DNA of 64,000 bases from Escherichia coli (GTDB taxonomy: Bacteria > Pseudomonadota > Gammaproteobacteria > Enterobacterales > Enterobacteriaceae): assembly GCF_045037415.1 (NCBI RefSeq), contig NZ_CP173438.1, one strand, 5' to 3'. A program made the position numbers and the translations under genes. Below, piece after piece: positions 2,222 through 2,466 of the stretch; position 1 is the stretch's first letter, and each line of letters opens with the position of its first letter. Under the pieces are notes generated by a model, which ran no database searches, had not been told where the DNA came from, and was given only the letters and a program-made list of their open reading frames with translations.

Positions 2222-2330
2222 GGTCCGGTGTTTCCCTGCTTGCACTTAAAAATGAGCGGATAGGAAACTCTCGAAATGGTTCGTCGATATGCTCACCTCG
2301 CACCTAATCACCTTACCGAACACGCACGGT
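2222..2330 (+). pseudogene. Degenerate 3' remnant of a tyrosine integrase gene
   Basis: Translates with indels to ..[28 protein letters not shown].. (integrase C-terminal RYAHL region); similar to a second remnant at 13826-13980. Confidence 0.45.
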
Positions 2331-2421
2331 AAATAGATTCGATCCTGAACCCATCGGTCCCAAATCTGTCCCAATCAAAAAATAAGGAAGGTATTAATGA
2401 TGTGTAACTTATTGATTTAAG

Positions 2422-2466
2422 TGGTGCCGATAATAGGAGTCGAACCTACGACCTTCGCATTACGAA
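2422..2466 (-). repeat. 45-bp partial copy of the tRNA-Thr 3' end; distal att repeat of the thrW island
   Basis: Identical to 14011-14055 (3' part of thrW); the integrase gene lies next to it. Confidence 0.85.

Follow-up and report, generated by a model that had tools for sequence, protein, structure and literature searches.

What do two truncated integrase genes, one at each end of an 11.6-kb interval beside thrW, record of the elements that have used this site? The tRNA gene thrW is a known integration hot spot, used by P22/Sf-type phages, CP4-6, GI-thrW and the vat island. In the window, i.e. the whole 64-kb stretch of E. coli DNA that was analysed, the 3′ half of thrW occurs in a second copy, and an integrase 3′ remnant accompanies each copy. 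The initial annotation read this as repeated integration at thrW and implied that the remnants are two differently decayed copies of one gene. Repeated integration is borne out, since three unrelated arm signatures and three integrase types meet at one site. Instead of a single gene, two Int lineages are present, the distal remnant being recombinant. Both stretches are probably what remains of different thrW-specific integrase genes, belonging to lambdoid phages that integrated here one after the other; they would subsequently have been reworked by homologous and illegitimate recombination.

The two remnants and their setting

The first 16 kb of the window are 99.3–100% identical to E. coli ST131-type chromosomes (O25:H4, EC958 and others), and the layout given in Table 1 is based on the PGAP annotation of strain NR1430 and on direct comparison. 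ARAGORN calls a complete thrW at a single place, and the 3′ 45 nt of this gene form the proximal att core. The program does not recognise the partial copy as a tRNA; this copy constitutes the distal att site of the island GI-thrW, and the 45-bp core occurs only in these two copies within the window. Beyond thrW lie proA and proB, the interval from proBA to dinB and then the Flag-2 lateral flagellar cluster. On the other side, homology to K-12 downstream of yagU stops at ~1966; the foreign segment that follows stands in place of the paoABCD-yagP region of K-12, and strain KOr021 also keeps pao-yagP there. The source of this segment is a lambdoid (Rac-like) small gene near tail-fibre assembly genes; positions 2082–2208 are ~82% identical to a Rac prophage gene adjoining tfa/pinR in BL21, and at least 80% of the fragment is found in 1297 genomes.

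Other insertions and fragments occur in the surroundings. Between ykgJ and yagU, 980–1180 (−) gives an Rfam match to IS009 (193.6 bits) that overlaps a 120-bp ORF labelled by PGAP as a 'tail fiber assembly protein' fragment. The Flag-2 cluster carries two further insertions relative to NR1430 (27281–28037 and 32560–33991): one, at the start of a motA-like gene, is an IS1 flanked by a 9-bp target duplication; the other is a 1.4-kb IS3-family element between lafA and fliD.

Table 1. Features of the thrW region, in window coordinates
Feature	Position	Strand	Remarks
ecpE, ykgJ, yagU	yagU region 1186–1800	−	Precede the 240-bp foreign segment
Lambdoid (Rac-like) prophage small-gene fragment and its terminator	1967–2208	−	Left flank of distal remnant
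Distal integrase 3′ remnant, last ~66 codons	2209–2407	+	Hybrid: SfX-like 5′ part, SfII-SfV-type 3′ part
Two tandem GTCCCAA, candidate SfII-type Int arm-type sites, P arm	2357–2374	+	Function by analogy with the lambda 2+3 layout
Partial thrW copy, 45-bp core, tRNA 3′ half to anticodon loop	2422–2466	−	Identical to 14011–14055
Inner left arm of GI-thrW, two AAGTACGC motifs	2467–2633	+	Candidate arm-type sites of the island integrase
int_A, P4-type tyrosine integrase pseudogene	2634–3953	+	Stop at codon 112 (2967–2969); PGAP 'internal stop'
AbiEii toxin	4118–5038	−	Pfam AbiEii 3.2e-36; PGAP
AbiEi antitoxin	5025–5807	−	Pfam AbiEi_3 5.5e-34; PGAP
hsdR	6091–9189	+	Type I R-M, PGAP annotation of NR1430
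hsdM	9183–10820	+	Type I R-M, PGAP annotation of NR1430
hsdS, split by IS1 at 11087–11854	10810–12834	+	Type I R-M, PGAP annotation of NR1430
isrK-like RNA	12938–13015	+	Rfam, 68 bits
C4 antisense RNA	13037–13125	+	Rfam, 71.8 bits
ash	13041–13199	+	Pfam Phage_ASH
Hypothetical gene	13177–13647	+
Ner-like HTH pseudogene	13644–13791	+	Aligned with intact WW2 homologue
Proximal integrase 3′ remnant, last 68 codons, SfX/HK542 type	13792–13996	+	Inside the island unit
thrW, tRNA-Thr(CGU)	14011–14086	−	ARAGORN; Rfam tRNA, 71.8 bits

The existence of two decayed integrase C-termini beside the att repeats, as initially annotated, is confirmed; their extents are not, as the remnants cover 2209–2407 and 13792–13996 instead of 2222–2330 and 13826–13980. 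The gap of about 130 bp noted between the distal remnant and the tRNA copy is likewise explained by premature stops in that remnant. Indeed, each remnant stops 15 bp short of its core, exactly as the int ORF does in intact relatives. Both encode the extreme C-terminus of a tyrosine recombinase, starting right after the HDLRHTW box and including the catalytic RY(A)HL, and both are labelled 'integrase, missing N-terminus' by PGAP. An Rfam scan of the window found no RNA family over either remnant, its only matches being tRNA, isrK, C4 and IS009 elsewhere.

The remnants are in register from 2209 and 13796, respectively, on through the cores. A repeat search returned three blocks between the distal and the proximal copy (identities of 75, 81 and 94% over 92, 42 and 63 nt, respectively, with a spacing of 11,589 or 11,587), and BLAST aligned them at 74.7% over 265 bp (E = 9e-25, which rules out chance similarity). 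The alignment of 2222–2466 with 13826–14055, proposed initially as a check, thus extends in register far past the 45-bp core. The estimate that the two are three-quarters identical holds with the core counted and fails outside it, where a global alignment of the non-core part gives 146/216 (67.6%).

Two integrase lineages and their scars

The distal remnant carries several defects ahead of its native stop at 2405–2407: premature stops at 2212 (TGA), 2261 (TAG) and 2330 (TAA), and a deletion of 2 bp near 2248. In a search of phage genomes, 2250–2466 is 93.5% identical to the int-attP region of SfII, SfV, SfI, SfIV and phi458, and the match begins only at 2250. Over columns 1–54 of the alignment, the remnant agrees with SfII at 28/54 positions (52%), with HK542 at 41/54 (76%) and with the distal remnant of strain WP4-S18-ESBL-09 (hereafter WP4) at 49/52 (94%); over columns 82–216, agreement is 128/135 (~95%) with SfII and 80/135 with HK542. 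Homology to an SfII-type int does not run the whole length, therefore: an SfX-like 5′ part extends to about 2290, and only 2250/2290–2466 is of SfII type.

Other genomes give the order of the two parts. WP4 and EC17GD31 carry the same left flank, junction and 5′ part, followed by an SfX-type 3′ part with a 29-bp deletion, which indicates that the SfII-type swap came after the truncation. The lineages of ST131, E2348/69 and Nissle have SfII/SfV-type sequence over two-thirds of the scar, at its 3′ end, and keep the flank, junction and 5′ part as they were. An old SfX-type int 3′ end, joined to the lambdoid fragment at 2208/2209, is resident by thrW in B2 and related lineages. Furthermore, a construct joining window positions 1–2466 to 14056–17000 matches genome FCI29 with 0 mismatches over 5.4 kb. 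As FCI29 is an exact empty site, the distal remnant is the resident scar that adjoins thrW when the site is empty, and the present/absent unit corresponds to the 11,589 bp between the cores, proximal remnant included. The FCI29 state could be ancestral or result from a secondary loss.

The proximal remnant has a different history. Over 264 bp, 13792–14055 is 92–93% identical to the int-attP region of HK542, mEp213, mEp043, SfX, ECP1, HK75, HK446 and mEpX2; this homology to thrW-specific SfX/HK542 int is contiguous with the attP core and keeps the native distance of the stop from it. Its sole internal defect is a TAG at 13877–13879, which replaces the catalytic Tyr codon. No open frame with the full catalytic domain (R, HxxR, Y) remains in it, and its match to positions 137–170 of 172 of Pfam Phage_integrase scores 17.8 bits, below the cut-off of 27.1: it is a gene fragment, not a gene. 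Upstream, it is fused to a Ner-like gene that has a 65-bp internal deletion and a TGA and whose C-terminus is cut by the junction. This junction displays 5 bp of microhomology (GGCAA; the intact homologue reads GGCAAC there), a usual sign of illegitimate deletion. About 800 genomes have kept the Ner′|int junction, as has an island variant with other cargo. The proximal scar belongs to the island and lies within the 11.6-kb stretch that is present or absent as a unit.

Within the proximal remnant, beside the arm-type motifs and ~70 nt downstream of the thrW 3′ end, there is a terminator-like hairpin with a T-run (13927–13943, −), so that the phage arm may supply the terminator of thrW. The short scar of the K-12 type starts right at this hairpin (window-equivalent 13942).

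The lineage assignments bear directly on whether one remnant-and-core unit was duplicated within the chromosome and then diverged, as the equal length and register, the nearly equal 5′ end and the ~82% identity over the 5′ ~90 columns might suggest. Such a segmental duplication is extremely improbable. The two copies, each 92–95% identical to a different phage lineage, are only 57–60% identical to each other over the 3′ 130 bp, and their candidate arm-type motifs differ. Moreover, FCI29 has one copy, the intervening island being absent exactly at the core, and the proximal junction is found in other chromosomal backgrounds without a second core.

Formation of the proximal remnant in situ in ST131, by a phage that integrated after GI-thrW and decayed there, would fit the fact that SfX/HK-type phages do integrate at E. 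coli thrW; QL57EC, for example, carries beside thrW a full-length int that is 99.5% identical. It remains unlikely, however. The very same Ner′|int junction, its flank nearly unchanged, recurs in KOr021, WP5 and strain '405', which have pao genes and a reverse transcriptase cargo and neither a distal core nor int_A; the junction therefore predates the ST131 configuration. In FCI29, the whole unit is exactly absent, scar included.

KOr021 also provides a second, independent hybrid, which sits at the Ner′|int junction beside a nearly identical flank and has a different cargo and a crossover point that differs from that of the distal remnant of the window: its 5′ part agrees with HK542 at 46/54 positions and the remainder with SfII at 157/162. 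The KOr021-type island has neither a distal core nor an island integrase. In KOr021 (locus L007, 14618–21088) and in locus L009, it shares with GI-thrW the AbiEi/AbiEii left part and the right end made of ash, the hypothetical gene, HTH′ and 'int, and encodes a 1069-aa RNA-directed DNA polymerase where GI-thrW has hsdRMS, which looks like a swap of defence cargo between conserved flanks. The 3′ half of thrW in KOr021 (L007, 21014–21057) displays two substitutions, ATAATAGG to ATAAGAGG and CCTACG to CCTCCG, which change a T-stem T-A pair to G-C and thus form a compensatory pair within the phage-supplied 45 nt; the distal partial copy of E2348/69 has only one of the two.

Comparison with the thrW-adjacent integrases of other strains, also proposed at the outset, further documents repeated use of the site: in various strains, live or decaying prophages of SfX or SfII type lie right after the same distal remnant and core. 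E2348/69 and Nissle 1917 carry this remnant flanked by the same 240-bp segment. In E2348/69, an HK542-like P′ arm directly follows the distal core and a 516-bp HK542-like int remnant adjoins thrW; in WP4, the arm following the distal core is SfII-like. The site beside this one resident scar has thus served a succession of phages. In Nissle 1917 (locus L006, 6315–12091), the distal remnant is followed by IS1 debris and the vat autotransporter island instead of the core, the distal att copy being lost. In K-12, an SfX-type scar of ~70–100 bp lies between yagP and ptwF, from which intF reads inward, and this short type of scar is found directly beside thrW in many genomes.

The 5′ limits of the two remnants of the window (2209 and 13788–13796) correspond to positions 957 and 961 of HK542 int, i.e. 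they are 0–5 bp apart allowing for microhomology, despite unrelated left flanks. No convincing resemblance to the core was found at this limit, and GCTGGCTGG, located there, is not Chi. A functional reason for the common limit was considered and rejected: if the arm lengths of lambda are a guide, a functional arm would need fewer than 215 bp, and other classes of int truncation exist at the locus (HK542 int ~661, 910 and 1107). The chance of limits falling within 5 bp is ~1% for one pair and ~9% over about five truncation classes, and the near-equal limit, for which no mechanism was found, is treated as a coincidence. One could imagine that the ~215-bp remnants are maintained as homology traps that cure thrW prophages through int recombination, or as decoys that titrate Int at the candidate arm sites. 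Repeated overwriting by such a trap would explain the two independent hybrids, and under either role the near-identical 5′ limit would reflect a selected minimal unit; this proposal is nevertheless very improbable.

GI-thrW and its attachment arms

Far from being the rest of the phage that brought the proximal integrase, as initially implied, the 11.6-kb interval corresponds to GI-thrW, an island already known from ST131, whose own integrase lies at the opposite end. Without the IS1 and its target-site duplication (777 bp), the 11,589 bp amount to 10,812 bp, in agreement with the ~10.8 kb of GI-thrW, and the type I R-M genes and the bounding by thrW and a partial copy also agree. The int_A region is 100% identical to that of EC958, and the same arrangement is found in about 520 genomes. 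In PMC3203889, GI-thrW is an island of 10.8 kb that occupies thrW and encodes a type I R-M system; PMC4659465 assigns M.EcoMIII to it, and a few ST131 strains are reported to lack it (PMC3203889, PMC4659465, PMC5654935).

No direct or inverted repeat of at least 8 bp was found between 2467–2640 and 13561–13800, which leaves the thrW cores as the only island boundaries. A tandem prophage array would have n+1 cores; the 64-kb window holds two cores, one island and scars. The pseudogene int_A retains both the arm-binding and the catalytic integrase domain (Pfam Arm-DNA-bind_3, 2.9e-17; Phage_integrase, 6.5e-16) despite its premature stop. It holds the position of K-12 intF, which has the same location and orientation adjoining ptwF. 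A search for an intact close relative of the island gave 17 matches to the int_A region at 90–95%, all of them just 3′ fragments.

The interruption of hsdS by IS1 suggests that the R-M specificity subunit of this strain is probably inactive. In NR1430, hsdS is intact and an IS1 lies between the integrase pseudogene and abiEii instead. The segment 12938–13791 is a remnant of a P4-like immunity region within GI-thrW; the isrK and C4 RNA matches lie just upstream of ash or overlap it.

Arm-type motifs were called from repetition and position only and are thus candidate sites. In the attP of HK542, (T/C)GGCACAA occurs twice within the int 3′ end and three times past the core (2+3 layout), and the proximal remnant keeps both int-side GGCACAA candidates (13946 and 13957). 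The distal remnant carries the candidate GTCCCAA instead, starting at 2357 and 2368; SfII has CGGTCCCAA and TTGTCCCAG at the equivalent int-side place, in the form GTCCCA(A/G). A third candidate motif, AAGTACGC, has its sole two exact copies within the 64-kb window at 2599–2606 and 2611–2618, inside the island; none occurs in 13300–14100, even at one mismatch. In JKHS016, whose intact integrase is 74% related to int_A, pairs of AAGTACGC lie at both inner ends of the island, one upstream of the integrase, as in the window, and one ~70 bp from thrW. GI-thrW thus has cognate arm-type sites at one inner end only, and the lack of AAGTACGC at its thrW-proximal end indicates that the native right arm was replaced by the int-side arm of a phage. 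JKHS016 was considered as a picture of the state before the deletion and rejected: it is the nearest intact relative, but its right end differs. Its 25-kb island (locus L015, 901–26200) is bounded by a K-12-type short int scar and thrW. A type I R-M system accompanied by a DUF4268 gene, a type I Zorya system and a UvrD-like helicase gene pair are found on it alongside an intact integrase of the int_A family.

These arms allow one to ask whether the proximal remnant is a working attachment part of GI-thrW, its ~215-bp length being selected, through which the Int/Xis of an SfX/HK542-type helper would mobilise the island. Both GGCACAA candidates and the core are indeed intact, the Ner′|int junction has been kept in so many genomes and with a different cargo, genomes with and without the island differ exactly at the core, and the two remnants begin at most 5 bp apart. 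Such hitch-hiking is however highly unlikely. An att mimic mobilised by a helper would need both a P and a P′ arm, and P-arm candidates are found only at 13946 and 13957: a phage-type P′ arm at 2467–2633 was rejected, this stretch having no similarity to the P′ arms of HK542 or SfII and neither GGCACAA nor GTCCCAA, so that no cognate attL exists. In addition, the intact relative JKHS016 uses its own AAGTACGC on both arms with no phage remnant, remnants cut elsewhere exist (~70 bp in K-12-type strains, 516 bp in E2348/69), and the same arm has been overwritten with SfII-type motifs in KOr021. Judging from these sequences, GI-thrW is probably immobile and fixed in place, as its integrase is a pseudogene and none of the three integrases has a cognate pair of arms.

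The preferred reading, successive integrations followed by recombination, suggests the following course, in which the order of events is inferred. An SfX-type phage would have integrated at thrW and decayed to a scar of ~215 bp fused to its own distal gene. An SfII-type prophage, the presumed source of the SfII patch, would have integrated next and then been lost by a RecA-type crossover between its int and the resident remnant, unless the remnant was gene-converted. Separately, an SfX-type phage would have integrated between an ancestral P4-like island and thrW. A single deletion at the GGCAA microhomology would then have taken out the right part of the island and the middle att copy and left no more of the prophage than the last 205 bp of its int. 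The resulting Ner′|int composite is common to GI-thrW and the KOr021-type island, with differing cargo, and would have reached the ST131 lineage either by integration or through homologous replacement of the region. The gene thrW itself stays intact and open to further elements. No genome was found to hold the presumed intermediate, in which an SfX-type prophage would follow an ancestral island whose right end is still intact.

Comparison with known systems

The locus is an integration hot spot of an ordinary, already described kind, and involves no new element or mechanism. Distinguishing the resident scar from that of the island clarifies the anatomy of the hot spot and reveals short int remnants that are repeatedly overwritten by recombination with incoming phages. 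It also helps to annotate thrW islands and to interpret the presence or absence of GI-thrW in ST131.

The closest parallel is the tandem integration of SfX and SfI at thrW, demonstrated experimentally in Shigella flexneri (PMC3306764); the SfX- and SfII-related phages matched here are themselves recorded as thrW integrators (record annotations; PMC3306764). There too, attB is thrW downstream of proA, and the two integrase/attP lineages are those met in the window; the second element enters at the att copy of the first, which leaves int by thrW and the partial tRNA at the far end (PMC3306764). Unlike this tandem, the window holds no complete prophage, only two int scars of ~200 bp, one of them recombinant, with a P4-type defence island between them.

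The GI-thrW of EC958 is the same island (10.8 kb, type I R-M M.EcoMIII; PMC3203889, PMC4134206 and PMC4659465), except that the copy in the window has an additional IS1 in hsdS. The integrase scars and the replaced right arm are not described in the passages of these papers that were consulted.

CP4-6 of K-12 occupies the same site, with a P4-type integrase reading inward from the distal partial tRNA and an SfX-type scar just outside. It differs from the island of the window by its 34 kb, by an IntF of another lineage, by a scar of ~70–100 bp that abuts yagP and by the lack of a thrW-proximal int scar.

In an attP of the lambda/P22 type, the core is flanked by arm-type Int sites and the int ORF reaches up to the site. 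The remnants of the window keep the int-side pair of the two int-side and three far-side motifs of HK542; compared with a complete attP, there is one arm per att copy, its motifs being recognised from repetition only.
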